The translations under genes and the position numbers were made by a program. The notes beneath the pieces were generated by a model that made no database searches, was not told the origin of the DNA, and saw nothing but the letters and a program-made list of their open reading frames with translations. DNA of 64,000 bases, taken from Schmidtea polychroa. Lineage: Eukaryota. Where the stretch lies: assembly GCA_044892525.1 (NCBI GenBank), contig CM097887.1, positions 3,596,001 to 3,660,000 on the forward strand. The letters are read 5' to 3'. Numbering within the stretch: position 1 is the stretch's first letter; every line of letters starts with the position of its first letter. This document shows positions 1,713-55,000 of this stretch, piece by piece.

Positions 1713-2541
1713 GTGTTAGGTAATTGGGTTGGTGGTAATATTTAAAAGTTACCATTCAAATCTTTGACTCCAAAGCGTGCTTTATTCGATCCACAAAATA
1801 ACAATTCTCAAACAATATAAACCTTTATTGATTATCACAATTGATTACACGAATTATAACAACACGATCGATTTAATACTTAAATAAGTAATTATACAGA
1901 GCTTATTACAACATTACGTGAGGAATAGCTCTACTCGTATAATTCCCAATTACTGAACAATCACCAGCCGCTGATGTGACTCAATAATTTGATAGATTTG
2001 CTGGGGTACCACTCGATTGAATCTGTCCACGTTACCTCTTTCGCTAAGGGATGATTGTCCACCTCGTATGTTATCCGTTTTCGCCGTTCAACTCAGAGTG
2101 GGACCTCACATAACTTGTCCTTCAACATAGTGCCCGTGAATTGCTCCACGTTGGTACTGCACTATGCAGGCGAGACGCCAGCAAGCAAGTGAGCTTCTGC
2201 CTTAAAACTACTCCTTGCTGAGGCCTCGACTTTTCACTTACGACTGCCGATAGAAGGGCTTACGTCCGTTCTCAGTACACAACCGCCTAGCGAAATTTCG
2301 TTGAACACAGATTTGCATTCGTTTCCTGGGTCTCTAGAGTTCTTAGCTCGACGTCCTTAATCATAATCAGACTAATCTTGAAAGGAAGAGAAAACAAAAT
2401 GAACAGTAAGATTTATTGATTACTATATTATAACACAGAACTTAACCATACACATTTCAATGTTTTCAATAGGAAGGGGAAATATCACAACAAAGGTAGA
2501 TGGAGTCTTTGGATATCCTTATGAACGCTCACCGTGGCCTC

Positions 2542-3291
2542 TTATTTCTCCCATTCAGTATCGGCGAGTAACTCATCCAAATCAAAGAACTCGGAGGCGT
2601 TCTCTTCCCAAGTTACTCCCGTTGCTGAAATAACTCGTGCTGGGGGCCCGGTAGTTAGGTCTATGGTCGCGTGAGAATCGTTGATGCTGGTTGGATTTTT
2701 CGTTGAGGAGACGTTCAGCTTTGTGGATGCACGCTCACGTTGTCTCCTTTGACGCTCAGCACGTGACAACTGCCGACGCTTAGGCTTTGAGGAGCTGCTG
2801 ATAACGAGAGGCAGGGCGGAGGTAGAAACGATAGATGGAGTCGTTTTGCTGGTGCCGGTAAAGATCACGTCGGCTGGCTTGGGCGAGAGCTGAGTCTCTA
2901 CGCACCCTTTGCAAGGCTTTCTAGACGGTGACGACGACTTTGACGAGGTATCATGGTGCCTTGGGAAGAGCTGATCAGCTTCGCCTATAGGAATTTAGAC
3001 AATTTGCCGGGTGGCGGCTGCCTGGATATAGACTTTGTGCAGCGCCTCCGACTGCTCCTTTATTAGACTTCTCTGGGCACGGCTCTCAGAGATTAGAGCG
3101 TCCCTGCAATGCTCACTACGATGGAGCTTCTTCTGGGTCTCTTTCATCTGGGCGGGATTGAACCATGTCCCCTCTAGCTCATCGATCTTTCTTTTGTATT
3201 TCCCAATCTGGGTCTGTAAGTCTTTGATGATGGCGTTTTTGTCCGAGCAGGAAAAACAAGGACGTAACGCAGGCTTGGCAGTTGGAATCAT
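2542..3291 (-). pseudogene. Unknown 250-codon reading frame (CxxC, coiled coil, second CxxC, Ser/Thr-rich, basic patch, acidic tail) with one in-frame TAA at 2995-2997
   Basis: ORFs 2995-3330 and 2542-2868 are in the same frame, joined by 42 open codons (IPIGEADQLFPRHHDTSSKSSSPSRKPCKGCVETQLSPKPADV). The ATG at 3291 follows a pyrimidine-rich acceptor tttgcctttatag. Confidence 0.6.
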
Positions 3292-5392
3292 GATAACTAT
3301 AAAGGCAAATGTGAGATGTGGAATATACAAGAATCAATTTTCAAAATATAGACTCGACTAACTGGCTATTCGCGGGTATTCAACGAACACCAAGAAAGAA
3401 CTTATTTTTACATCCAACTCTGTTACTTAGATTTTTACAGCACAATTCAACTTAAGTGTAAATTGTCGATTTGACGAATGCGAAGAAAGATGGTGAAATT
3501 TCCCATTTTGGTAAAATGTTTAGTTCGCAGCCCTCCCTTTGATTTATTCAATTAAGTGATTACGCAAATAAGTTCCTTTAAGATTGATATTTAACTCCTA
3601 CCCTGGGTTCGTATTTACCATCATCCATTTCAAATTCCTATGTCGTTATTTAAAGAATTTGTTTATTTCCATTCAAACACTCGGTGTTATCGTTTACAAT
3701 CTGCAGTAATTAGTTATTATGCGTCATGTGTAAGGATCGCACACTCCGTTTACCATGAGTATGCACCGCGGCGACGATTGTCCTTATCACTCAGTTCACT
3801 ACGCACGATTGTCGGTTGACCCGAACGGGGATTGATAGTAGATAATTGACCCTGCGAGTTCTAATATCTGTTATTATCATTGGTGGCTCACACTACTTAG
3901 CCTATCATGATATGAAAAATCTACCGGTCTAACATCTGCAAATCGACAGCTTACAAGATTCATTAGCCAACACACTTATCTACTAGCATTCGTCGGGGTG
4001 AGAATTCAAATGCATGCGTCCTGTGTCAGAACAGTTGTGTGTCAATTATGCAATCTCCCGTTCATATGCAGTACAGATGTCACCAACCATGAGTAGATAT
4101 CGTTCAACAGGAGTTTGTGCACTAGCTCGGTGACGTAGAAAACTTTGGATATTATCTCACTGCCTGCAAATTCACGCTCGTCTACAATGTTGGAATTAAT
4201 TGCTGTAATTCGAAAATTTCTTTATGTTGTGATGCCTCAAGGTTATAAAATAAACGAAAATCAAATGATATCCTCGAGCCGTATTTCCGGGAAAATATTC
4301 CGAATGCGATGCAGAACAGACACTTATCCAGATAGTAAGAATTTATGTCCTAACTGCATTAAATAAAATATTAAAGTAAATGTAGTCTTATGTTTTAATT
4401 CATTTTCGTATCATGTCACTTATCTGAATGCCACAAAAAAAAATTAAATTCTCGACTCTGGCTTAGTAGCGAAATTTTCTCATGAAATTCAATACTGGAG
4501 TGTCGTAGATGAGTCTACTCTAAGTGTGGTAGTGAAGATCAAGATTCGGATTTTCAGATAAGTGGGATTTTCGAGTGATGAGATGTGACGTTGTGAAATA
4601 ATAAGAAGTGTAAAATTTGCGTTTTCCCCAATCACTGTGAAGCATATACATGACTCCCCAAAATTTCGGAATCTGTTACTGAAATCAATAAGATATCCTT
4701 CTATGAATTTTATGTCACCTTCAGCGATTGGACCCGTGAAGAAGCCTCCACATTTCGGCCCAATCTAGCTGCGTGATTGAAATATTCCATGTCCACCGGC
4801 TGAGCTCCCGAAGGCACCTCACGCCATGACATGGAGTATCTCAACTCCACGTGTCTCATTAAATTTAATTCAATCAAATAATACTTTATGAAATAAAAAT
4901 ATCCAAATTGTTCGATAATAATAAATTTATTATAAAATGAAAATATGCTTTAACCAAATAAATCGTTCACTGCATTAAATCATTTATGGGACCAAACGAA
5001 GAGAAAATAAAAACTAGTTTAAGAAAACTTTTAATCATTCATTAAATAGGTGTAATTACCATTAACTTCAAAGAATTATAAACAAATCATAATAAATAAA
5101 TAAATCCGGCTTACGCTTGAGTTAGGCTGAATCGCAAATAATGCTCGTGGTCAAAATGAGTCGGTTGTCTCTGGTTCTATGAATCCTTCTGGTTATACCT
5201 CAGTTACTAGTTGAATTGAGTTATCGAGTCACTCGTGAATTTAGGTTCGCTAATATTTCTGATGCTGGAATTAGTCCTGGTAAGTCGTAGTCGTTTACCT
5301 ATGAAAATTTTGATTAAACAGTAGGTTGGTAGAATTGGCACTTACCTATGAAAATTTTGATTAAACAGTAATTTTAATGATTTTGGTGCCCG

Positions 5393-5427
5393 TTTATATA
5401 GTAAGTTCTTATTTGTGCGGACCAATC
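5393..5427 (-). promoter_or_regulatory. TATA box (CTATATAAA) and CCAAT box near the 5' end of the 3.75-kb element
   Basis: Minus-strand CTATATAAA at 5401-5393 and CCAAT at 5422-5426. A consensus donor CATAG|GTAAGT follows at about 5345, and a duplicated donor CATAG|GTAAAC at about 5299. Confidence 0.5.
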
Positions 5428-6273
5428 AAAATTGAGTACCGCTTATTTTATTAAATTAATTTGCTTTTTTCCTATTTCTTTGGATATTTTACTTATTTTT
5501 CTACTTTTATTATATCTTTTATTTATTTCTTAAATTCCTTAATATTTATTGCATTTTACACTATTTCTCGTCATTCAATTGTCTTATTTAATTTTTCTTA
5601 TATTTTTTGTTTTAATTCTTATTTCCTAATTATTGTTTTTCTTATATCTTGTTCTATTTTATTCTTATTTTGGTTTATTTTATTTTTATTTTAATTTAGT
5701 TATCCCTAACCTAATTTCCGAGGTGTTTTCCGATTCAGCCCAACAGATTGAATTGAATTTCTCTTTGATTTGACTTGACTTGACTTTATTCAGTATACTT
5801 TAAACCTTTCTTGTTCAACACAGTTTTGTGACACTGTTTGGTTCCAATATTTTCTCTTCTTTCCAATTTCTAATTTCTTATTTTTAATTTCTCAAATTTT
5901 CTCTAATACCGAATTATTTTTCGACTATCTTGTTAAATTTTCCTTCGACCACTATTTCTGATTCCATTAAGAAGACTTTTGCTTTATGATCCGCACTTGT
6001 CCGACACTTGTGACAATTCATTTTTTTATTCCTCTCTCTCCATAATTTGTACAGCCCCTGTGTGGTCACTGATAGCTTAGCACTCGGGATAATTTGTCAT
6101 TTTTTTCCATTTCTGCTTCTGACATTTCTCATACTTATTTCTATTTCCCACGTTATCTCTAAAAGTTTAGAGATGCCGATTTTGTTTTCATTTTCATCTT
6201 CATTTTCATTTTGTGTAATAATGAATGTGTATGACGTATGAATATTAAACGTCTATGCATCATGAGTTGCGGA

Positions 6274-6531
6274 CAGCGCAGTCTCTTCCATTGTGCTAAC
6301 CGTGCTAAGCACAGGGGGCGCCGTGAGTGAAGGGGCGCCGTAAATTTTATAAAAGCCATAAATTTGATAAAATTTGCACTTTCAAATATAATTTATGATA
6401 TTACAAAAAAAATTATGAATAATTTAAAAAATTTCCCAATAGAGGCCACTGGTTGAAAATAAAAAATTGTTATTTTAGGGGCGCATTATAGTTTATACCA
6501 CATGGGCGACAAATTTCTAAAGACGCCTTTG
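6274..6531. mobile_element. hAT-type MITE, 258 bp
   Basis: 8-bp TSD GTTGCGGA at 6266-6273 and 6532-6539, GGGGCGCC subterminal motifs, degenerate CAG/CAA TIRs. Confidence 0.75.
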
Positions 6532-7351
6532 GTTGCGGATAAAACACCGCGACTCCACGACTCCGACTCCGACTCCACAGCTCTGATTATAATAATTAAA
6601 TAATGATTAAATAAATTATAATTAAATTATGACATGTGAACAGTTTCTGAATGACTGGCCTCAAGCATATCTGGTCCTCATTCAGAAAAAAAACATTAAT
6701 ATTGTACAGGTTAAATAAAATAAAAAATAATTAATTCATTACATTTTATAGTTTTAATTGCCACACAGAATTTTGTTGCCATGATTAAAACAACAAAAAC
6801 GCATTTTCTGAGTGACAGCAAACCATTTGTGAACTTTTTGCATTGTTTGAGAATTTATAGCAAAACAATAGCCATTATGGTGGCATCACTTGAATATATA
6901 ATAAAAATAGTAATTAANNNNNNNNNNNNNNNNNNNNNNNNNNNNNNNNNNNNNNNNNNNNNNNNNNNNNNNNNNNNNNNNNNNNNNNNNNNNNNNNNNN
7001 NNNNNNNNNNNNNNNNNNNNNNNNNNNNNNNNNNNNNNNNNNNNNNNNNNNNNNNNNNNNNNNNNNNNNNNNNNNNNNNNNNNNNNNNNNNNNNNNNNNN
7101 NNNNNNNNNNNNNNNNNNNNNNNNNNNNNNNNNNNNNNNNNNCAAGTAAATGATAATATAAGCCGTTATGCTGCAAAGCATATATTTAATAAAATGAAAC
7201 AATTTTCGATTATAGCAATTAATGTTATCCTTAATATGCTTGACTTGCATGAAGAAATAAGAATTTTGTTGATATAAGAAATGCAGGAGAGTGCAAGTTA
7301 TCAAACGGTAAACATTAATTTTATATAAGCATTGCATCCGTGTATAAACTG

Positions 7352-9171
7352 TCAGATCTCATTCACTGAGCATTCTAACAAAAGACTTGAGCACCTCTCG
7401 AGCAGTCTGCCATTTCCAAACTCCGCAAGCATAAAAATAAACGCATCACTAATGTTGAACGAATTCATAATCGGTTTAGAAATTCGACAGAATTTTCTAA
7501 TGGTTTTTAAATTCTCCATATTATCTGGATTAATGAAGCTTATTGTTACATTGGCCTTGAATGGCCATGGTAAAGGAACATCTTTTACGCTATGGAAAAC
7601 AATCAATGACACGTTAAATCGAGAGGAATGAACACGAATAGCCAATCGCATTTTGTATGGATGGCTATTCGATGAAAAATGCTTGCTGAATAAAATTCTG
7701 GATGCTTTAAGTCTAGTAAATGTGGAGTCGATTCTCCACATCAAAACTCCATCAATTACTTGAGAAAGATTCCTCTCTGCGTGTGTGAGTTTTCCCATAA
7801 GTTCCTTCTCATGTTTATCGAATTTGTCGTTGATTGTCTTTAATTTTTCCTCGAGTGTTTCTCTCATTTCCTATAAAAAACCTTTCTTATTGTCATTATA
7901 AAAGCTTGATTTACTTGCTGTATTTCCTGGCGTTTCATATTCATTTCCGCCGTAATCTTGTCCACGTTGCTATTGACGGTTTGTTGGAATATATGTATTT
8001 TCTGGGCTAGCAATTTCCCATTTCTCTACAATTAACGAGTTGAGGTAATTTTATTAATTCACAAAATAATTCATGCCATTGCTGTTTTAATTTCTTTGCT
8101 GATCAAACGAATCTTGTCTGCATTCATTCCAGCTATTGAGTTCTCTAAATTTCGACGTAGGACTTCAACATTATTTGCTAATTTCTCTTGCTCCTATCAA
8201 CAATGATTCATCTTTTATGTTATAAAAACATTCACCTTTATCCTAGCTTTCAGTTCTTCTTCATCCTTTTTGTTTTTTTCCTTCGTGGAGTAAGCTTGAT
8301 CCTTCATTTCCTAAATTCAATTAAGAAGTAGAATGAAAATCTAAATTTCTAACCTTATTCATGACCTCCACTCGCATTTCAAAGCAAGTATTAAGATGAT
8401 CAATTTTGTTTTTTAATAAATCTATTTCAGATATCATTTTCAAATTTTCTATCTAAATCTATTATAAGTTGAAATAATGATCTCTACTAACTTGTTTGGT
8501 TTCCATTTCTGATCGGATCCGATCAAACGTTTTTGACTCAATTTCGAATCTCATGCTATCAACTTTTTTCTCTATATTCTTTTTCCAATATTCACTTATT
8601 TGCGCTTTATTTTCCATNNNNNNNNNNNNNNNNNNNNNNNNNNNNNNNNNNNNNNNNNNNNNNNNNNNNNNNNNNNNNNNNNNNNNNNNNNNNNNNNNNN
8701 NNNNNNNNNNNNNNNNNNNNNNNNNNNNNNNNNNNNNNNNNNNNNNNNNNNNNNNNNNNNNNNNNNNNNNNNNNNNNNNNNNNNNNNNNNNNNNNNNNNN
8801 NNNNNNNNACACACAAAGAAGAAATAAATAAATTTTTACTAATTAAATATCAATTAAATTACTCTTATTGATTTAATTTCCTGATTTAATGAACTAATCA
8901 TTTGGTCTCTCAATTTTTCAGTAGATTGCAATTTTGAGATTTCGTTCTTATGAACTTCGTCGTTCTTTTTGATTTCTTCTATACTCGATTTAATCGACTC
9001 CAGCATTACAATAAGAGATTTGCTGTGGGTATAACTTTCAAGTCGCAAATGTTCAACCATTTGGTCAAATATAACGTATTCTTGATCACAGCCGATACCG
9101 TAAAAAGGACATTTTGATATCTTTTTCGGCTTTTTGAAGAAATCAAACATTTTAAAATTGAATATGCTCAT
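7352..9171 (-). CDS. TRAF-like protein (TRAF zinc finger, long coiled coil, MATH domain), at least 7 exons, one exon boundary in an N-gap
   Basis: Exon 1 (9171-8863) has CPFYGIGCDQEY..MVEHL..YTHSKSL. Short coiled-coil exons are separated by about 39-51-nt introns that keep frame. The last exon has the MATH motif DGVLMWRID..FSKHFSSNSHPYKMRL..LPWPFKANVTISF and ends at TGA 7352. Confidence 0.8.
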
Positions 9172-9555
9172 TCAAAGTCAAATTGAAACTAAAATCTGAA
9201 AATAGAAATTTGAAAAAATTGCATATAAATAATGCCATTCTGAGCTTAAAATGCAGTAACTTGATAAATTTTATTAATTATTATTGCCAAACAAAGTTTA
9301 TGATATAAATTAATTTTGCAGTTGTCGCATTTAATATTTATAAATTTTGCTTTATTATAATTAAATATTTTTATAATTAAAATAAAAAATTAAATATATA
9401 AATATGAAAATTTTTCCACTACTTCATAAATTTCAATTTTAGATAACAAACATTTGTTTTAATGCATTGTTTTAATAATGGCACAGTCTTTCAGTTTTTA
9501 AATATTTTCAATTTCGTTTACATCTTTGTAATTTAAGTGATTATATTTATCAGAA

Positions 9556-12500
9556 ATGTTTGACCTAAATGATTGTCAATCTCTTGCATTAAAAGTGGCT
9601 ACCACAGGACTGATTGTTGCTGGTGGAGTTATGTGGTCAATGACTAAACCTCCTGCGCCAGTTTTAATGAAAAATGCTAACTATGATTGCCAATCTATCG
9701 TTGTTGATGCTGAGGTTAGTAATATTTTTGCTAAGCTTTGAAGATTTCTTTCTAATCTATCATTTCTGAATTGCATATTTACATAAATAATATGTAGTTT
9801 AAGTCATTGAAAGTGTATTATATAATATTTTTGAACAACGTAAACCTTGATAACAAGTTATGTATAAAGTTTGCTGAAAAATTGATAGATTTTGCCATTA
9901 TGGCATCAAATTGAATCCGACGTTTACTGAACAATCCTAAATGTATATCTGTCAAATGGCAATGATTTAGTAAATTTTTAGTTAATATAATGTTAATTGC
10001 TATCTTTGAAATTAATTTTATCCCACAGAATGATTCACAATTTATACTATTTAATCAGGGTTTCATTAATTCTGTTGAACTGCAGTAAATATTAGCAGCT
10101 TCTTTTCTATAAGCTTATTTTATTGATTTAAATTTTGCCCGGTATCCATGGTAACAGTAACCATATATCATATGGCAATTATACATTGAAAAAAACCTTT
10201 AATTATAAATCAAAAATTTATCTCATAATAAACGCGTGTGTTTGTGTGTCATTAACAAAATTGATATCAAAGCGCCTTGTTACATGAAATAATGTCATAT
10301 TTCTATTTATCAATTGCTACAAGTTTGAATTTTCTATTACCATTTAATATTCAATAAATAATTGATTAACTAATATAAATAACTATTGATTATATTGACT
10401 GCTAGGAAATCTAGATTAAAATGCTTATAAATCCACAATAATTGAATCAATTGCATTGCTCATAAAATATTGATTAATTATTAGTCCTAGAAAATATAAA
10501 ATTTATTCAATTACCCTTACAAATTGAAATAATGAAAGAACTCCAATTATGTAGATTTCTCTAATGTTTTTATCCTTTCTTTGTCCGGTTGAAACTGCCT
10601 TTGTCTATCCGTTACTCTTTATCAGGATTATTCTAACGTTTGTGGTATTTATCTAAGAGAAATTTAACACCTTTAACATGCCATTCAGAACTTCTACAGT
10701 ATTATCGCTATTTTCTTGTGTAACTGGAATTGAATTAAAAACTTTGCTATTTTCATCACTGAATTTCATTTTATCATCAAAAAACCTTTGGACATTTTCC
10801 TCTTGTAAATATGTCTAACCTTTTGTAAAATTAGCCATCTTGCCTTTTATACTGTCTTCAGTATTCTGCTATGCTTGTTTCTCATAATCATCTCAGGAAA
10901 TTGTTGAAGGCATTTCTTAGGTTTCTTTTTCCTTTTTCCCAATGGTAATTATAAACTGTTACGTCATCGAATATTATTGTTATCGTTTCTTTGTCCGGTT
11001 CAAACTGCTTTTGTCCCATTTGAGTTATTATTAAATTTTACCGAATTTAAAATTTTCTTTCATTCAAAATTGAGAAACCAAATATTTTTTAACAAAACTA
11101 TCTTTAATCCTTCATCCGGTCGCTGTCAGTTATTAATGTCCATTGTTGAGTGTTTGTAATATAAGAAAATTAAAGCTTAATAAACACCATTATACACAGA
11201 AATCGCTCATATACATTTCCTATAATATAAAAAAATCAATAATCTTATATTATACAAACATACAAATTCACTTTCATTTAACACTGATGTTCTCATTGAT
11301 AGTGCAATAATATACACCTTACACAAACACAACACATACTAATAAATACATGCAAACTTTTGATATATAGAAATGCGTCGCTGGGATACGTTTCTATAAT
11401 AACTTTATTTTTAAACAATTTTTAGACAAATGTTTTGAAAGAATATATATTTTTGGTGATTACTTTAATTATTTAATTACAATTTAAATATATCTGACTT
11501 ACATTATATCGAAATAATTCTAAAATAAATTTCATAAATTTGCTAAAAAGTAATAAAAATAATTTATAATACAAATGTTGATTAAAAGTAATATTTAAAA
11601 ATTTGAATAATAATCTCAATTATATAAAATCAATAAAATATATATTAGCTAAAATCTATATAAAATCCAAGCCTAAAAATTTACTTAAAATTGAATATTT
11701 TACCTGAAAGCCATTTCAAAATTGGTTGAAATAAATTTCAAGAAATAAATTTATTAAATTGGTGAGTCAATTTAATGATGTGCGCACTAATCACCACTAT
11801 AGAAAATGTATCTCAGTAGTGTGGTATATTTTTCTTAAAAAATAGGTTCCGGAATTCATGCTTTACTAAATATTTACCTTGACTTTTTTAGTAAAAGAGC
11901 GTAATAATGAAGTACACAGTTTTTTCAATTCAAAATAGTTTTATTATTCAAATATTATAAACAAAAAAAATCAAAAACAAAAATCAGAAAAAAATACAAA
12001 AATTTCCACACACACAGAGCATATTTGCATCATGTTCAGCATCTCTTCTTTGCTAAGTGCTGAGACTAGAATGATGTCCTTTGACGATCCATGATTCAAC
12101 ATATTTAGTAGGGTGAAAGTGGCGAAGCGGTGTTCCAACAATACGCAAAAATAGAAGCTATGAAACAGTATTTGTGAGAAGGGATACTTTTCCAGATGTG
12201 AGGAAAACTCTTTGTCTCCCAACTAGAAGAAAGTGTTACCATTCTCTGTTTCAGTTTGAATATTTTCGGGTTTGTCTTCTGTTGAAAAAAACTTGTAATT
12301 TTGTTCTTGTTGTCCATTAGGAATTTAAAAAATAACTAATTAAATAAAATTCAAATTAACTGAAATCATTAAGCATATATAAACAAACGCTTGCTCGATT
12401 CAATTATTTTTTTAGGAACGCACCGAAAACTTTTAATACATTAAAAATAGAAAAATTGGTTCCGGAACTACTTTTCGGTGCGTTCCGGTAGAAAAATAGC

Positions 12501-15500
12501 ATTGCCAACCACAATTATAGAAACTGTGTATAGAAATAGATTAAATGGTAGAAAAATAACTTTAACATACAACCACGACATATAAAAACATTCATTTAAA
12601 TTTTCGATATATGAAAATATTGCATGGAATGATAGCATTTTATATTTTGATTTTTTAAAGAAAATATATTAAAAATTTAGAATTTAATGAAAAAATATTT
12701 AGTACTCTAGAGTTTCGAGGTAATAAAGAAAAAATAGTAAATAATGAACACGAATTGCGTTTTAATCAGTCATTATAATTATTACCGAAAGTGCATTTAG
12801 TTCTATAATTTACAAATTTGAAAGAGATAAACTTCAGAAAGTCAATGAAAAAATTTATGCACATTATTTTATAAATATTTCCAAAAAATACGATGAATAA
12901 TATAAAAGCATTAAATTTAATTTAGAAATTCTTTTAAATTGTAAAATTTCCAAAAAACAAATTTTCTAAATTATTAATTTGAAAAACATGATTATGGCCT
13001 ATCTGTTGGTTTGCACACAAACCTGCACTATAGGTGTTATTATTCCATGCAAGCTGGTGTCTAGGTAAGTTTTATTTATATTACACCTGGTTGCTTTTCT
13101 CTATGTATATTATTAGCTACACCCAACTCTTTTTTTACACGATTTTGAAATAACACGGTCCACAAAAAAGGAACAAATCTTTTTTTGCACGAAATATTCG
13201 GTTTAACACTATTTTATTTAATATTGTTTTTATTGTTATTTTGACAAATATTTTTTTAGAAAATTTTACTTACATAAGGAAGTTTTAATAAACTGGTAAT
13301 GTTATTTTTTTTAAATTTTAAATTTTTTAGATATTATTTTATTTTACTAAAGGAAATTTTAATAAACTGGTAATGTTATTTTTTTTAGATTTAAAAATTT
13401 TTTATTAAGTGTTTTTATTTTAATTTTTATTATGGCCGATTAATAAGATGCCTAAACCAACGAAAAATAATCGGAAGCGACAAGCGATTTCTTTGGAAAC
13501 TAAAATAAAAATTTAAGACAGTATTGAGACAGGCGTAGGTTCCACATCTGTTGGCAAAGATTTTAGTTTAAGTGAAGCGACTATCAGAACCATTTTTTTT
13601 TCAGAAGCAATTTTTTCTCACTCATGATCCTAACGTGGAACGTGCATTAAAATTCCAACGGAATTTACAGGTTTGTATGGCTGGCTATCAAGAACTTTAT
13701 AAGGAAGTTAAAAGGGCAAAAACCCAGCAGCTTATAATAGATTTTATCATAAGAAAACCTATATCAGATTTGATAGACCTAAGTGAGTAAAGCAATTTAG
13801 CCAGTCTACAATAAACGTGCACGCTTATTATAAAGTAGTGATAATAAATATTAGTTGCTAAATAAGACTTATATTTCCAATTTGAATTTAATTTGTATGT
13901 ATTTATGAACTAAAATTTTATTTGTTTTTTACTTATGGACTAAAATTACTATTATTATCTATTTTTAAAAAAAAACATGTATGGATTATATTTTCTAAAA
14001 CTTATATAATATGGTTTCAAGATTTACTATTTTTTTGCACGGTTTTTTAGAACAACTAATGGTTCCTTTTTCTATTTTACACGGTTTTCTATAATTGTAG
14101 AACACATCCTCAATTTTACTATGGTTAACATGTCTTTTTTTACACGATTTTCTTTCGAACGTATCTACCGTGTAAAAAAAGAGTTGGGTGTATATTGTTT
14201 CATTTTATTTATGCATTTTGTGAAAAAATGGCGAATTTTGAAAATTAATGTTTTTAAATAAAATTTTTTAAAAAATTATAAATTACAAACTTTTTGGTAT
14301 TCATAATAGCCGTTAAAAATGAAATTCATATTCATCTTTTACTATCACTAATCACAATCATTGCATTCGATAGCATCCAAATATTTTTTTTTATTAAAAA
14401 ATTCTTTCAAAATAATGAATTTATTTTTTTTTACATAAAATTATTTACTTTCATATGCTCATATAAAAATAATACCTTATAAGGATATCGGAAGAAATTT
14501 TATTATTAATTTAATTTTTATTAACATGAAATAAAAATTACAACGTAAAAAGGCCTTAACCCCTTTACCGTCAACTTCTTTTTCTGAAATTGACCCTTAA
14601 TTGGCGACTTTATTTGCGGCTATAAAAACATTAATCTTTTAATTATTTTTCAAACAACTTTATCAACAATAATGAACAACTAATAACGAATAACAATTAA
14701 CTAATTAATAACAAATAAAGCTGTTTTTAGTATTGTTGTAAAGTAATGAGTAGTGGATAACAAGGTACTGAATAAGATGAACAATTGTTTTGCAAGTTTT
14801 TGTGTCTTTTGCTCCAACCTTTTGTAAGAATTTTTTTGTATTGTCTTCAATTTTATTTATCTGACACACTAGAACAGCATAATAATAGTTGTTGTGATGA
14901 TTTAGCCTATAGCGATGGGGTAATACAGCCAACGTTCTCTCTAAGCTGCGCGCGCAGCACCTCCAACTCCCCAGCGCAGCAAAATTATTTTCAGCGCAGT
15001 ATATTTAATTCAATTTTTGATACTCAATATTATTATGTGGTTCATTTTGAATATTTAAAAATTTTCAATGTTAATAACAAGATGCATAATAACAGTATAT
15101 TTCTGTAGTGTCGTTTTAAAACTCTTACAACCACGTTATAGCATTTTGACGCTCATTTGTATTTAAAGGCTGCTCAGCGCAGCTGACTTTGCGCGCACTG
15201 CTGCTTATGGCTTAGAGGGAACATTGAATACAGCTACATTGAGGTTTGAAACGTTTTCTGAGATTTCATGGGATATGGTTTTTGTATAATTTTTTATTTT
15301 GTTTAGCCCTGCCATACATTCTTGCCCTCAGCAGGGCTAGAGTTGTAGTAGAGTGCATGGTTATTATGGTTTGATGTTTCTAAATGACCTAGAACGACGT
15401 ATTTACGTTTAGCCGAGTATACTCGGGTTTACCGGTAAAGGGGTTAAACTTATAAATTAATTCTAGACATGGAGCGTGTATCAAGTAAAATAAATATATA

Positions 15501-22352: not shown

Positions 22353-25300
22353 GATAAATAAATTACTTTATAGGAACAAACATAAAGCTAGCGGTGATAA
22401 TTAACATAATAAATGGGTACCCCCAAACACGAAATCAGTGCATTCTATGTATGGGTATTGTGAGGTGTTTTCAGCTGAGAATTGAATATTTCAATGATAT
22501 ATTAAGATAATTCTAAATGATAAATAATGGATTATTGAAATATTTTTTAAATTGAAAATTTGAAAAATTAAATAAGTTTTTTTTAAAAGAAGTTTTATTA
22601 GTATATAATTTTTAAATAAATATATTTTAAATATCGAAATTGTAATAAATTGTTTTGAAAATTATACAATATTTCATTAAATAAATACTGGGAATTATGA
22701 CGTCGTTATCTTTTGAACCGGATTTATAAAATAATTTAGAAGGTGTTAGTAGAATCTAATAGGTACAAACGCAAATGAGCACGGCTAGCCTATTAAAGGG
22801 GCATTTAAAAACATTTTCACAATTAAAATTAATATTAAATCGATTATTAATTATAATTAGATAATATAATCGAAATTAAACATTTAAAAGATAATCATTA
22901 ATATACAATATTCAAATACAATATTTATTCAATTATTATTGAAGATATGTAATATTTATAATGGCGCCCTAATATTAGCTATGGCAGTCAAATATGCAAA
23001 TGTGGAACTGGCATTTGTACATGATGAATTTCACAAAGCCTCTATATACTTCCATTTTCAAATTTCATTTAGTTTTATTTATTGTAATTAATTAATTAAT
23101 CACAATAAATAACAAAATTGGTAATAATAATTAATAAAATTATTCAATATTCATCTGCATATATATAGAGTTATACTTGGTAATTTGGTTGGTGGTAATA
23201 TTTAAAAGTTACCAATCAAATCTATGAGTCCAAAGCGTGCTTTATTTGATCCACAAAATAACAATTATCAAACAATATAAACCTTTATTGATTATCACTA
23301 TTGATTACACGAATTATAACAACACGATCAATTCAATACTCAAATATGTAATTATACAGAGCTTATTACGACACTACGTGAGGAATAGCTCATCTCGTAT
23401 ACTTCCCAATTACTGAACAATTACCAGCCGCTGATCTGATTCAATAATTTAGTAAATTGAATTGAATTTCCCTTTGATTTGACTTGAATTCTTACCGAAC
23501 TCAATTTTGTGCACCGTTTAGTTCCAATATTTTCTCTTCTTTCCAATTTCTAATTTCTGATTTCTCTAATTCCGAATTATTTCTCGACTATCTTTTAGTC
23601 TTTCCTCGACCACTAACTTCTGATTCCATTTAGAAGACTTGCGTTTATAGTCCGATACTTGTGATAATTCATATTTCCATTCCTGCCTCTCAATAATTTG
23701 CACAGTTCGGCACTCAGGATAATTTGTCATTTTTTTCATTTCTGCTTCTTTTCTATTTTCCTCATTACCTCTGAAAGTTTGGAGAAGCCAGTTTTGTTTT
23801 CATGTTTTGTTTTTTTTAGAATTCCTTTTTACTTTCTCTTGTACTTATTAATTATAAGTGACCTCCGCTTTATTGTTATATTTCTTTTGTTTTGTTATTC
23901 CTTCCTCATTTCTCAATTTTTTCCTTTCTGTTTTCTTCTCCAAGTTTCAGAGTGCTATCCCAATCACCCTATCGGTCTTCCCCAAGTTATTCTAATTATT
24001 TATAATATTATTTACTATTTAGATATCCTCAACAGTTATCTATCTGTAATAGTAAGGGGAAATCTAAGAAATTTATTAATTTCTGTATAATTTCGAGCCC
24101 CATGCTTCCGTATACAATTGATCTAAATATTAGATTAATTGTTCCCGCATTTGTATCTTTTGCTAGAAGGGTGCAAATTTCTTCCATTAGGGATATTTGA
24201 CATCTTTGGAGGTTTCCTTCAGGCCCCCCCCCATTCCATTGAATAATTCGTTTTATTCATAATTTAAGTGAAAATTCTGATAGGTTGGTGTGATTGAAAT
24301 ACCCTTCAATTAGTCATATATTTTTAGTTTTTTGTTATGATAATTGTGGAAAGTTTTCTAATCTTTCGGACTTTTCGGTTATTCTTGGTTTTTTACCCCC
24401 TTCCCCTTAAAAGCATATCCCATGTCGTTCTCAATCTCAGTATCCTAATTAATCATCCGGTCTCGATAATAGTAGCACAAAAGTTTAAAACATAAAAAGT
24501 AATTGTTGCACTTGTCTACTGCCAATAAATGGGAATAAAACTTTCTCCGTCAGATGCTGAGGAGAGAAAAGGAATTTGGATTAAAATTTATTTATTTATG
24601 ATTAATCTATTCGGATTTATCTTTATAATAAATATCTTGATGGGAATTAGACTTGTTTAGTGATGGACTAAGATGTAAAATTATGCAACAAACATCTCCC
24701 TGTTTTCGTTATTCTGACTTTCTCACAAATTACACCTATTGGCCATTATTAAATATGAAAATATATTCTAGAATTGTTAGAATTCTTTCAGTCAGCTTCA
24801 TTGAATGATTACTTTCCCCCAGCTCTTCCTGTTCACATTTGATTTCCTGCTGATTTGCACATCATCATTTAACCTCATCATGCTAACTACTCATTTTATT
24901 TTCAGATAAAATTCGGCAGCAAAAAGGAAGTTCATTTATCGTTTTTACCATTGACTCATGTTTATGAGAGATTAGTCCATGTGAGTTGATTTTTATTATA
25001 GCTCATTTATCTGGATTTCCCATATTCATTTTATTGTTTTCTCTAATTCTGCATTTGCATTTTACTCAATTTTTGTTCTAATGTCATATTTCTATTTATC
25101 AATTGCTACAAGTTTGAATTTTCTATTACCATTTAATATTCAATAAATAATTGATTAACTAATATAAATAACTATTGATTATATTGACTGCTAGGAAATC
25201 TAGATTAAAATGCTTATAAATCCACAATAATTGAATCAATTGCATTGCTCATAAAATATTGATTAATTATTAGTCCTAGAAAATATAAAATTTATTCAAT

Positions 25301-27073
25301 TACCCTTACAAATTGAAATAATGAAAGAGCTCCAATTATGAAGATTTCTCTAATGTTTTTATTCTTTCTTTGTCCGGTTGAAACTGCCTTTGTCTATCCG
25401 TTACTCTTTATCAGGATTATTCTAACGTTTGTGATACTTATCTAAGAGAAATTGAACACCTTTAACATGCCATTCAGAACTTCTACAGTATTATCGCTAT
25501 TTTCTTGTGTAACTGGAATTGAATTAAAAACTTTGCTATTTTCATCACTGAATTTCATTTTATCATCAAAAAACCTTTGGACATTTTCCTCTTGTAAATA
25601 TGTCTAACCTTTTGTAAAATTAGCCATCTTGCTTTTTATACTGTCTTCAGTATTCTGCTATGCTTGTTTCTCATAATCATCTCAGGAAATTGTTGAAGGC
25701 ATTTCTTAGGTTTCTTTTTCCTTTTTCCCAATGGTAATTATAAACTGTTACGTCATCGAATATTAAATTTTAGAACCTAATGTTTATGTACACTGGGAAA
25801 ATTGCCTTTTTCTCTGGCGAAATTCGTTTTTTGGCTGAGGAAATGAAAATTATAAAACCGACAATTCTATTTGCTGTTCCTCGCATTCTCAATCGGATCT
25901 ATGACAAAGTGATGCCGATTATTTCACAGAGCCCTCTAAAATCATATATTTTCAATCTGGGTTTGGCGGCTAAAATGAAGGAAGTAAACCGGTAGGGATA
26001 TATTAATATCGATATGAGCAACCTGCCGATTCACGGTTATCATTTTCAGCGGCATCATCAGAAAGAATAGCATATGGGATTATATTGTTTTCAGGAAGAT
26101 CCAAGCGATTCTTGGGGGAAATGTGGAGATAATTATGGTAGGAAGTGCGCCGGTGTCCTCTGATGTTGTTAACTTTTTCCGATCGGTTATGGGCAGCTTG
26201 GTAATTAGTGTTCCTTTTTGGCATCGATCTACTTTACGTTGTGGTAGGTCATTGAGGGCTATGGACAAACTGAAACCACAGGACCTGCTACATTGACTCT
26301 ACCGGGGGATCCTGATCCTGGACACGTGGGAATTCCCGTTCCTGGATCTTTTATAAAGCTTTGCGATGTTCCTGAACTTGATCTAGTCGTTGCCAGGGAT
26401 CGTAGAGGAGAAGTAACATATTGAAATAGCGATCAAATAAGGTTCTAGTGTTCGTATAGGTTTGCGTGAAGGGCACGATGTGCATCAGTGAATACTTTGG
26501 CGACCCGGAAATGTCAAGTAAATTGATCGATTCTGAAGGATGGTTACATACCGGTGATATTGGGCTATGGACAGAGGTTGTTTATGGATTTGTTTGTCCC
26601 GCGCAAGATTTACGCTGCCATATCGTTTTTTTAAGAAAGGCCAATTGAAAATTGTCGACCGTTGCAAGCACATATTCAAGCTGGCACAAGGGGAATATTT
26701 AGCCCCGGAACGATTGGAGAATATATACAGTCTCAGTCCATTAGTTGCACAAATTTTTGTCACAGGAGATAGCTTGAAGGATTTCTGCGTTGCGATTGTC
26801 ATTCCGGATCTCGACGGTTGGCAGGCTATCGATAGTAAATATAGATCAGTCGAGGACATTTGCAACGATCCCATGGCGACAGAAATCATTGAAAAGGCTC
26901 TCAGTGTAGTTGGGAGACAGAATAAGCTAATGGGATTTGAGATTGTTAAACGGGCTCGGCTCTGCTCGACAGCTATGTCTCCAGAAAATGGCCTCCTCAC
27001 TCCGACATTGAAATTAAAACGCAATGAGGCTTCGAAATTCTTTGCTCAGGAAATCCAAACATTATATCAGTGA
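9556..27073 (+). CDS. ACSL: Long-chain fatty acyl-CoA synthetase (ACSL1/5/6-like), about 15 exons
   Basis: Exons 9556-9714, 17427-17535, 17591-17661, 18137-18241, 18290-18389, 21174-21346, 21400-21432, 21477-gap, 21879-~21955, 24906-24980, 25774-25991, 26050-26200, 26248-26412, 26460-26576, 26636-27073. Splice phases are consistent. Motifs: TLYDLFQCG, VPLYDT, SILFTS/GIPKG, SFLPLTHVYER, EGYGQTETT, GWLHTGDIG, KLAQGEYLAPE, LLTPTLKLKR. Confidence 0.93.
10290..11230 (-). repeat. Dispersed retroelement-like repeat; 10290-10976 is near-identical to 25079-25765, and 11115-11230 resembles 16480-16600
   Basis: Direct comparison shows two 687-bp copies differing at a handful of positions, plus a decayed minus-strand reading frame. 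Family not identified. Confidence 0.8.
11840..12512 (-). mobile_element. Decayed hAT fragment (N-terminal KITSFF and TTF-like zinc-finger remnant)
   Basis: Minus-strand MDNKNKITSFFQQK.., frameshifted Trp/Cys-containing segment, GTTCCGG subterminal repeats, GGTTGGCAATG-like terminus. Confidence 0.45.
13120..14190 (+). mobile_element. Internally deleted Tigger/pogo element
   Basis: TIR CACCCAACTCTTTTTTTACACG at both ends with TA TSD. From 13448, MPKPTKNNRKRQAISLETKIKI*..SLSEATIRTI (CENP-B/psq HTH) is fused to a C-terminal remnant DPNVERALKFQR. Confidence 0.85.
14560..15443. mobile_element. piggyBac-type non-autonomous element
   Basis: TTAA flanks, TIR CCCCTTTACCG...CGGTAAAGGGG. Confidence 0.8.
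14930..15226. mobile_element. hAT MITE (297 bp) nested in the piggyBac element
   Basis: Perfect 8-bp TSD AATACAGC (14922-14929, 15227-15234), TIR CAACGTTCTCTCTAAGC / GCTTAGAGGGAACATTG. Confidence 0.88.
15655..15810. repeat. Foldback/palindromic repeat family (core GACTATGAATCAGTAAAGATATCGAT)
   Basis: Inverted arms around ATCGAT. Related copies at about 34420-34545 and 55415-55630, with fragments near 29570-29650 and 46595-46620. Confidence 0.7.
15826..16456. mobile_element. hAT-Tip100-like MITE
   Basis: GGGAC/GTCCC subterminal repeats, right terminus AAATCTGGTTACCTA typical of TAGGGTGACCAGA-type TIRs, left end degenerate. Confidence 0.55.
18676..19371 (+). mobile_element. Deleted Charlie/Buster-type hAT remnant
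   Basis: Left end CAGTGATTCCAAAAGTG, C-terminal remnant FLIASPSSYLVER, right end TTTGGGAACTTCTG. Confidence 0.6.
19790..20680 (-). mobile_element. Decayed Tc1/mariner-superfamily transposase
   Basis: Minus-strand WFQQDGTTAHTTRATIEILK*HFPNRLI..W*PCLQDLT, matching the QQDGAxAH...WPxxSPDL catalytic motifs. Boundaries approximate. Confidence 0.7.
22459..22800. repeat. Partial copy of the repeat at 47757-48857
   Basis: Shared TGTGAGGTGTTTTCAGCTGAGA...TTTTGAACCGGATTT..TTTAGAAG segments. Confidence 0.7.
23175..24034 (-). mobile_element. Solo LTR (about 860 bp) in an ACSL intron
   Basis: GTTAT repeated at 23170-23174 and 24035-24039. The minus-strand start is TGTTGAGG, followed by a purine-rich U3-like tract and AATAAA near the other end. 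Homologous to 1714-6200. Confidence 0.75.
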
Positions 27074-30387: not shown

Positions 30388-33339
30388 ATGAAATGGTGTA
30401 ACTCAATGGTTCCCAACCCGTGGCCCGCCGGGCATAAAAAAGTGGCCCTCTCCTCAACAAAGAAAACTAAGAAAAAATTCACATTCACACCTTCTTTGGG
30501 AAAAGTTTGTCTTGAACTTCGTTTAAAACCATGATAAAACCATGATAAAACCATGATAAAACCAGATGCCAATTTAATAATAAAAGAACTGTGTATCGAT
30601 TAATTTTGCTTGGTTTTCATCAATAATCTGATTTTATTTCAATCTTCTGATTTTTTTTATAAATTCTTTTAATTATCTAATTTGGTTAAAAAACGAGCTC
30701 GGAATTTAAAATCATGGATAAAAGAAAGTTTGAACAAAATAAAAACTTAGCATGTCGTGAATTAAATGACGAGTGGAAAGAGAGGTATATGTTTGCTCTT
30801 GGTCGTAACGGAAAGCCGGTCTGCTTGGTTTGTGGATTTAGCGTTTCATTTGTAAAGAAATATAACATGGAAAGACATTTCAACAGTAGCCATGCAGATT
30901 TGGTCGATAAATATCCAATGGCCTCTGATTTACGAAGGGAATTTATCGCCAAGAAGGAGAAAGGAATGAATGTCCAACAATCCTTATTTACTGCTATACT
31001 ACAGCAAAACAAAAGTATGGTAATTGCATCGTATGAAGTGGCACTTCTTTTGGCAAAGAAGAAGAAACCCTTTACTGATGGAGAAGAGATTGTGAAGCCA
31101 GTTCTTGAAATAGCCGCCAGAATGCTAGGAGAAAAAAACATTGAAGCCAAGTTTAAAGATATTCCACTATCGAACAATACAATGACAAGACGGGTTGAGG
31201 AACTTTCTAATAACGTTAGTGAGCAAATTGCATTTCACGCATCAAACTGCAAGTTTTTCTCACTTCCAATGGACGAGTCAACTGACATTAGCGCTACCGC
31301 ACAGGTAACAATTTTTATTCGTGCGGTGAGTTATACTTTCGAGGTTATCGAAGAGCTGCTTGGACTTGAGTCAATACAAGTGACAGCCAAAGGCACAGAT
31401 TTGTTTGAGGTTTTAAAATCATGCGCAGAAAAAAATAAATTGGATTGGAAAAGGTTGGGTAGCATTTGCACAGATGGTGCACCAGCTCTAACAGGCAGAC
31501 ATGTAGGATGTTTGTCTTTGCTCGAAAAATTTCATGCTCGTCCACTTTTAAAATATCACTGCATTATTCACCAGGAGTCGCTTTGTGGGAAATCCATGAA
31601 TATGAAGCACGTTATGGATGGTAGTAGTGAAGTGTGTGAACAAAATCCGTGCAAAATCATTGCATAGGCGAGAATTTAGACAGTTTATTTCAGAATTAGA
31701 TGCTGAATATGGTGAACTTCTTCTGCACTGTGAGGTCAGATGGTTGTCAAAAGGTAAAGTTCTGTCGCGATTCTGGGATTTAAAAGGAAGTATTTTGGAA
31801 TTTTTGGCGGAAATTAATGAGTTGCCTATAGAACGTGAATATCTTTCAAATAATGAATGGCTGAATGATTTAGCATTCTTGGTGGACATTACAGGGCATC
31901 TCAACAATCTAAATTTGAAGTTGCAAGCAAGTAACAATCTGTTTGCAAATCTGTGTAACTGTATTGCTTCTTTCAAAATGAAATTACAATTATTTGCCAA
32001 TCAGTTATCCAAAAAAAAATTGGACAATTTTCAACACATGAAAGAAAGGATGACAGGTAATGACTTTGATGAAGACAAATATAGGTGTATGGTTGTCGAA
32101 CTTTTGACAGCTTTTCAGTCACGATTCAGTGAATTTGCAGATCAGTCTGACAATGTGGCTCTTTTTACCAATCCTTTCAACTTTCCAGACAAAAGGATCA
32201 ACTGCCTAGATGAGAATTTGCAACTTGAAATTATAGATCTGAAGTGTAACTCAGTTTTGAAAAGTCGATTTGCCGAGCTTCCGGTTATTCCAACTGCAGA
32301 TGATATGATATCATTTTGGAACCTGCTCCCAGACAGTGACTTTGAACATATGCGATCTTTTGCACAACGTTATGTTTGTCGTTTTGGTAGCACATACAGA
32401 TGCGAGCAGTCATTTTCTGCAATGAAATTGATTAAAAGCAAGAATTGTTCACGCCTTACTGATTCGAACTTGAATGGACTTATGATTCTGGCAACAACTA
32501 AACTTCAACCTGACATTGAAAAACTGGCTTCTAGTATTCAGCCACAAAATTCACATTAAATCCAAATGCCTGTGAATATTTTTATTGAAATTATAAGTAT
32601 ATTTTAACTATGATAATGATTTATTTCGAAAATCACTATCTCTGGACTTTATTGGTGTTCTATTTAATCCACAATTTCTTTATAAAAGTTAAAAACCAAT
32701 ATTTATCTCTGTAAATTAATTTACTAAACTAAAGTTACTAATCAGGAATTTGCCAATTGTAAAATATTATTGTAAATTATGTCATATAAAAAAAGTATCT
32801 TGGTTTTTTTCATCTAGGGTATTAACTCACAATAAGGTTTCTTCTTCGCCGTTTTTTGTTGTTTTAAAAATTTTGGCCCTTCGTGTCCTCCACCTAAACA
32901 AAGTGGCCCTAGGCCAAAATAGGTTGGGAACCACTGGTGTAACTTAAAGATTGGATATGAATTCATAAGTGTTGACAATGATAGTAGTTCTAACGATATC
33001 TTTGTTCATGTTAAATCTATCCCATCTGATCGAGAAGTTCTTTTAAATATTCCAAAAGTTGACAGAGGATCCATGGCTCAAATTATATTGGATACATTTA
33101 AAGCGCCAATGAAAATATTTACGAGAGTAACAATGATGTGTTTCAATTCAAGCAGTTCTTTCTTTGTACGCTTCAGGGTATCGTTCTGGACTCTAGTGAT
33201 CTTATACCACACACTATGGCAATTTATGAAACCTTATCAAGTGGTTCGACAATGTATCCTGGTGTTGCTGTTCGAATGCTCATCTCAACTCCATTACAAA
33301 TATATATCAGAATTTACCAGTTATAATGAAAATAAGTGA
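30388..33339 (+). pseudogene. Cold-shock-domain-like ORF interrupted by the hAT element
   Basis: Removing 30404-32944 gives MKWCNLKIGYEFISVDNDSSSNDIFVHVKSIPSDREVLLNIPKVDRGSMAQII, matching RNP1 (KWFN..GYGFI), RNP2 (DIFVH) and the distal V.F.I...DRG..A strand of CSDs. Confidence 0.7.
30404..32936 (+). mobile_element. Near-intact 2,533-bp hAT (Buster/GTF2IRD2-like) transposon; transposase 30714-32559 with one +1 frameshift near 31620
   Basis: TIR CA(A/G)TGGTTCCCAACC, perfect 8-bp TSD GTGTAACT (30396-30403, 32937-32944). C2H2 PVCLVC..RHFNSSH, DEST, CTDGAPA, HCIIHQE, EVRWLSKG and STYRCEQSFS motifs. Confidence 0.95.
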
Positions 33340-36552: not shown

Positions 36553-37508
36553 CGATTCGGGCTTGAAAGATTTATTTGTTTTAATTAATGACAACAGATG
36601 AATATTTTCTCGTTATCTATCACAATCACTATTGAACCATAAAAAGGGATCGAAGTGGTTAAATGATTTCTTTTTAGAAATTAATGGCCCTCCTGGAGGA
36701 ATTTGTTGAAATATTAAATTTTATTCAAATTCATTCAAGCGATGTTAATATGTTTAAATAGGAAATAGATAAAACTTACAAAACTGTGACTGGAAATGTG
36801 ATACGAATGGGCAAAGCCCAACTCAAAGATGAACAAGCTGACGATTTCTCCTCCTCCAAATCAAGTTTCTCATATAAATATTTTATTAATAAAAAATAAA
36901 TAATTTTTATTGGCATGAAATGATGTCAGATTTATTATTTAACCAAAAATTATAATTATTATGAAATCTGATTGGTCATTTGCGCGTCTGACCTTCAGAG
37001 CGCTGTCGAGATGCTTGAGTTTAGGGTTTCATCAGCCTTACACCTCTGGACCTAGTACTAAGGCTCAGATTATAAAGCGAGACGGGTTCCGTAATTATTT
37101 TTACGAGACCTTCCATAAAATGGATTTAGAGACTTCCCTGAATATTAATCATAACGATTTAGATAATTTTCTGTTTATATTTTCTGTGACTTACTCACTG
37201 GTAGCGTGGAAATGACCCAGTTTAGATAATATTTCAGACATAATTGCTAATGCGATAAAATATGAATTGTAAACATTGAATCAGTCCACGTGTTGCGTTT
37301 GGTTTATTCAAATGTCAACGCCCAAAGGTGACATGTTTGACTAAGGAGTCTATTTACCTTTTCGGCTGGAAGAGCTATGCTTGATATGGGGGACGTATAA
37401 ACACTAGTCGAATTGTAATTTTTATACGTCTGCAAGTGATTTACAAGAGAATCAAAGTCTAATAATATATAATCGTTGATTACAGAATGAAAATCACAAA
37501 TCTCATCA

Positions 37509-54360: not shown

Positions 54361-55000
54361 TGTTACCTTAAAACTTTCCGCGGGGATCCCCTTTATTTTA
54401 TAATGGATAAATACATAAAAAAACCTAAATGAAAAATAACATAATAAATAAATAAATTACCTGGGGAAGATCGTCATGACAAACGGGACGATCTATGGAA
54501 ACTTAGAAAAGAAAACAGAAGTAAAAAGAAATTAAAAATGAGAAAGATAAATCAAATAAAAGGAAACAACCAATAAATTAAAACAAAGGTCATTGTTAAT
54601 TAAGAAGTACAGGTGAAGTTGGAATTTCAAATTCCAGAAAAACAAAATAAAGGAAAAAGCCGTATCTTGACCGCTTGTCAAAGATAGCGAAATTGTCGGG
54701 AGAAGGCGGCTTAACAGAAAAGGAAAATGGAAAAAATATCTTGACATCTGTCAGAGATAAGGCTGATGTAGAGGAAAAGGAAAATGGTAAACAGAATCTG
54801 TCGCCAGTGCCACAAACAAAACAACTATATAAAGGAAAACTAGTGCGCGAGAAATCAGAACAAATTTAGAACAGATTTAGAACAAAATTAGAACGAGAAG
54901 TAGAACGAAAACAGAACGAAATTGAGAACAAAACGAAACGAAATTAGAGACAAAAGTAGAGTAAAATTTTAAATTTAACAACCTCAGCAATTTTTCCCCT
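54361..55000 (+). mobile_element. Diverged LTR related to 23175-24034
   Basis: Starts TGTTAC. CCTGGGGAAGATCG..GAAACTTAGAAAAGAAAACAGAA..GGTCATT..AAGTACA parallels the minus strand of about 23830-23990. CTATATAAA at about 54825. Confidence 0.55.

Follow-up and report, generated by a model that had tools for sequence, protein, structure and literature searches.

A window of 64,000 nucleotides from the genome of the planarian Schmidtea polychroa (contig CM097887.1) contains, at positions 1999–5745, a real mobile-element insertion of the integrase type. We find that this 3747-bp element is a member of a multi-copy family and that, read on the minus strand, it is probably a solo giant Gypsy-type long terminal repeat (LTR) carrying its own spliced accessory gene. 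This reading is supported by an exact empty site, TG...CA ends, a 4-bp target duplication, the lack of terminal inverted repeats (TIRs), the copy family, and a conserved protein encoded behind a candidate splice acceptor at 3297. Its strongest features, which the initial annotation did not include, are the protein family and the conserved hairpins. A solo LTR is usually regarded as a non-coding leftover; the one described here appears to constitute an entire gene, encoding a conserved protein without a match in any Pfam, NCBIfam, PDB, viral-fold or ESM Atlas family. The initial annotation of this DNA had proposed a giant solo LTR or a non-autonomous LTR element whose accessory genes are expressed from one splice donor and several acceptors. 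The integrase-type insertion, the probable solo LTR and one such gene are supported by our analysis; the multi-acceptor scheme is not.

Ends, empty site and copy family of the insertion

The element opens with TG (1999–2000) and closes with CA (5744–5745), and it lies between two plus-strand copies of the target-site duplication GATT, the left one at 1995–1998 and the right one at 5746–5749. The same outer ends had been proposed initially, together with a 5-bp AGATT duplication; the ends hold, and the duplication shrinks to 4 bp because the right-hand AGATT borrows the terminal A at 5745, which is then counted twice. Reading AGATT as the duplication needs TG...AC ends, and the empty site is the same either way. 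The interrupted sequence is a high-copy, LTR-like host repeat, A-rich on the minus strand, whose left piece at 1714–1998 ends in TAACA on that strand and whose right piece occupies 5750–6194, in the same orientation. A sister copy at 23179–23806, likewise on the minus strand, carries the empty site at about 23455–23458, as had been recognized in the initial annotation. In fact, once the element and one copy of the duplication are removed, the flanks align with the sister repeat without a gap, at 92% identity over the first 280 nt, and contigs from the sequencing runs X1, X4 and X5 agree, spanning the empty site with 1965/1986 joined to 5775. With the breakpoint set independently by this empty site, the joint chance of finding GATT, TG and CA there is about 2e-5 at the base frequencies of the window.

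Comparison of the two ends confirms the short terminal inverted match noted earlier (TGCTGGGG/TGTTGGGC), with agreement at 6 of 8 positions, then at 7 of 10, 9 of 20 and 12 of 40. Local similarity between the ends, direct as well as inverted, is no better than in 300 shuffles at each of the four lengths compared. We therefore find no TIRs and, in agreement with the initial annotation, no LTR pair; the end similarity stops at six of the eight terminal bases and is at shuffle level beyond them. Because the element borders directly on host sequence at both ends, neither a primer site nor a purine tract remains. Pfam and PDB searches of the minus-strand frames gave no match to gag, pol or a transposase in the element, in line with the absence of gag and pol stated at the outset, and no second family member lies within the 64-kb window. 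A non-autonomous LTR element of the kind known as terminal-repeat retrotransposon in miniature (TRIM) or large retrotransposon derivative (LARD) was considered and rejected, as there are no two terminal direct repeats.

The same ends bear on the reading of the element as a non-autonomous Ginger-type DNA transposon. Ginger1 and Ginger2, as described in an excerpt of PMC2836005, have 40–270-bp TIRs, a 4-bp duplication and TGTNR ends, with CCGG/CCGT as the targets of Ginger1 and RTATAY as that of Ginger2. The element shares with them TG...CA ends, a 4-bp duplication and a similar length, which falls within the 2.6–7 kb typical of Ginger1, but it differs in TIRs, target and transposase. Its ends read TGTTG and TGCTG, so that TGTNR is present at one end only, and its target, AGATTG, is neither CCGG/CCGT nor RTATAY. 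No transposase was found in the minus-strand frames, although a non-autonomous copy is not required to encode one. Above all, the inverted match is confined to 6 of 8 terminal bases, with inverted similarity otherwise equal to that of shuffles. This absence of the long TIRs that, like a transposase, had been named from the start as a mark of such a transposon largely refutes the Ginger reading, and we regard it as very improbable.

Contigs from 4 of the 15 listed sequencing runs, all contigs included, were aligned at 80% likeness to a stretch containing the element, divided into 30 bins, giving a depth that is not a copy number. All 30 bins are covered in X1 and in X4, 23 in X5 and 12 in X7; the 18 bins left uncovered in X7 include the gene, and this run, only guessed to be RNA, says nothing on expression. 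About half of the sampled words are present in four runs of one study, and no RNA data set is listed among those that contain them. The deepest bin in both X1 and X4 is 4649–4819 (25,281 and 79,408, respectively), and the second-deepest is 2084–2254 (15,713 and 32,101). Depth is about 4,300–14,300 over the gene core at 2939–3280 (X1, X4), and 2,562 (X1) and 28,100 (X4) over the promoter block at 5333–5503. The deep blocks are thus four: the CCAAT/TATA promoter, a predicted hairpin at 4725–4851, the core of the reading frame, and the 3′ hairpins at 2115–2240. X5, which comes from a different study and has next to no shared sampled words, covers the same four blocks. Depth is only 79–640 (X1, X4) in the middle segment at 3452–4648, which has no intact frame or family match and is likely subfamily-specific or decayed. 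At position 3105, in the gene core, a variant letter is carried by 38 contigs of X1, 37 of X4 and 21 of X5.

Related contigs contain joints at 4852–5373 and 4864–5373 (X5) and at 5142–5364 (X4); in these relatives, the promoter block connects to upstream-numbered blocks without the intervening sequence of the present copy. Contigs also connect the promoter block to the hairpin block. Among the best-supported contig loose ends listed, none falls at 1999 or 5745. The uneven coverage could be taken to mean that nested repeats came together here by chance, as a patchwork with outer ends that merely resemble those made by an integrase, since depth varies several hundredfold and 7 of the 30 bins have no coverage in X5. 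Such a patchwork is scarcely credible given a single, cleanly defined empty site together with TG, CA and the duplication (again about 2e-5 by chance), contigs that link the promoter and hairpin blocks, and signals that are all co-oriented.

Transcription signals, accessory gene and hairpins

The minus-strand motifs that had been reported earlier, namely an A-rich leader, CCAAT, TATA, a GTAAGT donor and AATAAA (2417), are all found where they had been placed. An A-rich stretch at 5450–5700 (63% A), which by composition may be U3-like, is followed by a putative promoter at 5393–5426, made up of a reverse CCAAT box (ATTGG at 5426) and TATATAAA at 5400–5393, with TATATAA at 5400. This is the only canonical CCAAT/TATA pair, and it falls in a deep bin of X1, X4 and X5. 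A candidate splice donor, AG-GTAAGT, lies at 5340–5345. An exact 28-nt duplication (5342–5369 and 5295–5322) copies the putative first exon together with this donor, and so places a second donor at 5298 that is weaker (GTAAAC instead of GTAAGT); GTAAGT also occurs at 2241. At the other end, the putative poly(A) signal AATAAA (2412–2417) is directly preceded by TATAAT and followed by a U-rich stretch at about 2400–2380. The promoter and poly(A) motifs share one strand and are 3 kb apart.

Three acceptors, at 4353, 3297 and 2378, had been assigned to this donor, and we retain the one at 3297. Four sites, 4520, 4424, 3297 and 2798, pass a rough filter that asks for C/T-AG preceded by 12 or more pyrimidines in 16 positions. 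The predicted acceptor at 3297–3330 consists of a pyrimidine tract with TAG at 3297, lies 6 nt before an ATG at 3291, and has the conserved gene behind it. Downstream of 4353 there are stop-riddled frames without a family or structure match in Pfam or PDB, and the site at 2378, some 35 nt past AATAAA, is perhaps better taken for the U-rich element that follows a poly(A) site. The one-donor/multi-acceptor scheme is therefore unsupported, because only one acceptor reaches the gene, one is past the poly(A) signal, and donor 5345 is inside the skipped joints. The predicted first exon contains no ATG and, therefore, splicing from 5345 to 3297 would make ATG 3291 the first start.

The accessory gene behind this acceptor occupies 2542–3291 on the minus strand and comprises 249 codons, with one in-frame stop at 2995–2997. 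When its unbroken 98-residue part was used as a phmmer query against 1.84 billion proteins, ten matches were returned, of which seven are homologues at 36–41% identity; the remaining three (P0001–P0003) were dropped as tandem-repeat proteins in which no stretch exceeds 3.4 bits against the family profile. Two new independent members (E 1.5e-35 and 1.2e-11) came from a profile search among longer proteins, a profile search at near length returned only three members, all already known, and a word-indexed protein search with the whole frame gave 545 candidates, none scored. The family thus counts nine homologues (P0004–P0012), which are single-member records, and their similarity runs past the stop at 2995–2997 into an arginine-rich stretch. 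GTW is conserved in 10 of 10 sequences and LIxExRxQR in 9 of 10; at least five arginines within 12 residues are present in seven of the ten sequences, and PPxY in two. AlphaFold predicts a helix (residues 15–43), a kink at GTWFNP, a second helix (46–98), a disordered linker, an arginine-rich helix (174–195) and an acidic C-terminal helix.

When the family was scanned by sequence against Pfam, NCBIfam and PDB, the only matches, of coiled-coil or arginine-rich type, stayed below threshold, and neither hepatitis delta antigen nor Myb families were found at E up to 0.1. Foldseek returned nothing at E 0.001 or better from viral and PDB libraries, ESM Atlas named no family, and scans of viral and metagenome proteins were empty. 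By these comparisons, the predicted accessory protein is a conserved new family without a known family or fold match.

In seven of the nine homologues, the domain is fused to a host domain that is unrelated to it and differs from case to case, namely SNF, GDC-P, subtilase, actin, L21, DAD/cold-shock or, below the Pfam cut-off, PI-PLC. Fusion to such varied host domains is the pattern expected of a dispersed repeat caught in gene predictions, and the host-gene fusions among P0004–P0012 are therefore likely annotation artefacts arising from insertions. Even on this plain reading, predictions for seven or more unrelated host genes have taken in one and the same domain, an artefact worth flagging.

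Gag, reverse transcriptase and integrase are found in none of the nine homologues. That no homologue is joined to gag or pol could also mean that the element is a complete, non-autonomous mobile unit without an LTR pair or TIRs, which borrows a Gypsy-type integrase and has a helper gene of its own. The element does look self-contained from promoter to poly(A), and no LTR pair is seen in it; solo LTRs, however, would give the same picture. Moreover, we know of no route that copies a unit lacking terminal redundancy, a primer site or TIRs, which counts against this explanation, and we consider it improbable.

Folding analysis singles out a conserved double hairpin at 4725–4851 (4768–4851 together with 4725–4765) as the strongest-folding window of the element. 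The fold of 4725–4865 has a z of −5.8 on the minus strand and −4.2 on the plus strand, a stability that none of 200 shuffles attains. Of the 61 windows in a sliding scan, four fall below a z of −3; two of them lie on this hairpin, and the others are 2119–2238 (minus) and 2539–2658 (plus). Two long hairpins, one of them closing a GCAA loop, are predicted on the minus strand at 2115–2240. These best-folding sites, 4725–4851 and 2115–2240, coincide with the two deepest bins of X1 and X4. The minus strand shows more pairs and more G-U pairs in both 4724–4766 and 2115–2240, an excess that weakly favors a minus-strand RNA. No Rfam family matches the hairpins, and the hairpin pattern has no match in viral contigs. 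Two metagenome contigs that carry the pattern were rejected as chance hits, one with a bacterial insertion-sequence-like transposase and the other with a GC-rich unrelated gene, neither showing an extended DNA or profile match. At the element end, an imperfect inverted repeat of about 20 bp (2002–2109) has a folding energy not above that of shuffles.

Possible LTR-borne regulation and related systems

The element may have arisen and may act in three steps. In the first, an integrase would insert a full Gypsy-type element at the site, and recombination between its two long LTRs would remove gag-pol and leave one LTR with the original duplication. In the second, TATA at 5400 would set a transcript start near 5370, splicing from 5345 to 3297 would put ATG 3291 first, and the RNA would end after AATAAA 2417, at about 2400; each LTR, solo or paired, would in this way be a small transcription unit. 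Taken jointly, integration with LTR collapse and a spliced LTR transcript are, in our judgment, somewhat favored. The third step we put forward only tentatively, as rather unlikely: the accessory protein may oligomerize via its coiled coil, bind the 4725–4851 hairpin with its arginine-rich helix and, like Rev or Tat, help the unspliced genome RNA to be exported or read through. This hairpin is inside the predicted intron in the present copy, and in some relatives it appears to follow the TATA block closely. Should the protein act on it, regulation of the Rev/Tat kind, by a protein plus an RNA element, would extend to invertebrate retrotransposons. It is doubtful that a planarian Gypsy-type lineage evolved such a switch wholly inside its LTR, independently of the complex retroviruses of vertebrates; if it did, every solo LTR would be a free-standing source of a trans-activator.

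Several observations weigh against a solo giant LTR with a spliced gene and a hairpin-binding product. Between the promoter at 5400 and the poly(A) signal at 2417, R would have to span about 3 kb, an unusual length, and donor 5345 falls inside all three joint intervals, being skipped or replaced in some relatives. The stop at 2995–2997 breaks the gene in this copy, the window protein is the most divergent in the alignment (23–32% overall), and the AlphaFold model is of low confidence (predicted template modelling score 0.30). Pfam REV reaches 19.1 bits, against a cut-off of 22, and does so on one of eight members only; arginine-rich stretches, besides, are often mere nuclear localization signals. 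A shorter window on the hairpin gives a z of −4.8 on the plus and −4.1 on the minus strand, leaving the strand unsettled, and the hairpin could be a DNA palindrome. Finally, neither a pair of copies around gag-pol nor a second copy with the same ends is present in the data, which consist of the window and short contigs.

An R region of 3 kb is avoided if a long U3 contains the gene and a separate promoter upstream of it, similarly to sag of mouse mammary tumor virus (MMTV), and the genome RNA starts near 2400 with a short R. We view this arrangement as possible but unlikely, and the same holds for its two corollaries, that the hairpins at 2115–2240 would be a leader or packaging signal and that the protein, having nothing to do with the 4725–4851 hairpin, would be an accessory factor with an anti-silencing, structural or export role. 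TATAAT just before AATAAA would suit such a start, as would GTTATAAT...TAATCAATAAA, which is common to the host repeat and the inserted element; the 3′ hairpins are deeply covered, and PPxY in two of ten sequences fits an accessory factor. The whole sag frame, moreover, lies inside the U3 of MMTV (excerpt of PMC12789967). Against this, the implied R would measure only about 10 nt, and the sole canonical CCAAT/TATA pair is the one at 5426–5393. The long-U3 arrangement agrees with the favored spliced-LTR reading on what the element is, and differs from it in layout and in the role of the protein.

The favored reading has partial counterparts among known elements. Burro/GYPSM1, a giant Gypsy-like element of planarians, has an internal region of up to 25 kb and a total length above 30 kb, sizes that imply multi-kb LTRs, and Ogre elements of dicots have LTRs of 1.9–6.5 kb and extra frames of unknown function (both from an excerpt of PMC6431247). 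LTR size alone is thus not new. Burro and the element are alike in planarian host, in multi-kb LTR (implied for Burro) and in accessory frames. The extras of Burro, however, are located in the polyprotein or in an upstream accessory frame (MATH, BIR, BCL2, ankyrin, env); the element contains none of them, and the excerpted text makes no mention of an LTR-encoded gene for Burro (PMC6431247). In Ogre, too, the extra frames are placed in the internal region by the same excerpt, whereas the gene of the element is inside the LTR. A literature search, with repeat-database reports outside its scope, gave no account of the accessory protein, nor of any planarian element with a gene borne by its LTR.

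LTR-encoded genes are described for MMTV, whose U3 holds the sag frame and the second rem exon, and for human immunodeficiency virus (HIV), and regulation by a protein plus a hairpin for Rem/RmRE, Rev/RRE and Tat/TAR (excerpt of PMC12789967). The element resembles these systems in having a gene in the LTR that is reached by splicing, here predicted, and in combining a protein rich in arginine with a conserved RNA structure, again predicted here. The accessory protein differs from the MMTV and HIV regulators in that it shows no homology to them above cut-off, has a long helix-kink-helix as its core, and belongs to an invertebrate host. The family does have the arginine-rich stretch of Rev, Rex and Rem (7 of 10 sequences), but not homology to Pfam REV.

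A possible relative within planarians is GLT2, a Schmidtea mediterranea transposon that is de-silenced in neurons after smedwi-2 RNA interference and for which the text gives neither a structure nor a class (excerpt of PMC8532177). By-eye translation of the reverse strand of its probe, for the first 400 of 485 letters (PMC8532177 Table S1), suggests an intron, an AG acceptor and an open coiled-coil-like frame. This frame shows T-W-x-x-P-E-x-x-x-K-L-x-x-x-I-x-x-L, the spacing of the core of the accessory family, a likeness that was judged by eye and is unscored. LIxExRxQR is not seen in the visible part of the GLT2 probe (400 of 485 letters), nor is a TWxxPE-type motif seen by eye in the GLT probe as excerpted. 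The case for GLT2 being related to the accessory family seems about evenly balanced, and we treat it as a lead and not as membership. If the link holds, planarians would already offer a model, with transposon expression that is tissue-specific and under PIWI control, in which the element is directly accessible to RNA interference.

Host repeat and surrounding sequence

The interrupted host repeat has its own AATAAA about 110 nt from its TAACA end. Its sister copy reaches from 23179 to about 24020, with a tail that resembles 54425–54617 at 71%. Beside the host repeat, a decayed, frameshifted hAT-like transposase frame lies at 134–1500 on the minus strand; its motifs were seen by eye, with no Pfam match. 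Three further hAT-type transposase genes are found at 30690–32559, 56919–58723 and 62674–63870 (Spin-doc zinc finger, DUF4371, hAT dimerization), the first two of which are split by frameshifts.

The window as a whole is AT-rich and eukaryotic, and includes a TRAF MATH gene and an acyl-CoA synthetase gene with short introns; base composition, intron length and the MATH gene all suit a planarian-type host. No transfer RNA genes were found in it, and Rfam gave a single chance match to a small nucleolar RNA, outside the element. A direct repeat of 300 nt at 99% identity (10290–10589 and 25079–25378), either a recent duplication or an assembly artefact, has its second copy inside the acyl-CoA synthetase gene region. 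Porphobilinogen deaminase (37491–38483) and a Nop-domain, Nop56-like gene (51830–53731) each form one long open frame, and numerous short introns interrupt a neighboring gene. A phosphotransferase (APH-like) frame and an upstream frame, which is either its N-terminal part or a paralogue, lie at 39788–40210 and 46593–47162 and are kept apart by gaps and repeats.

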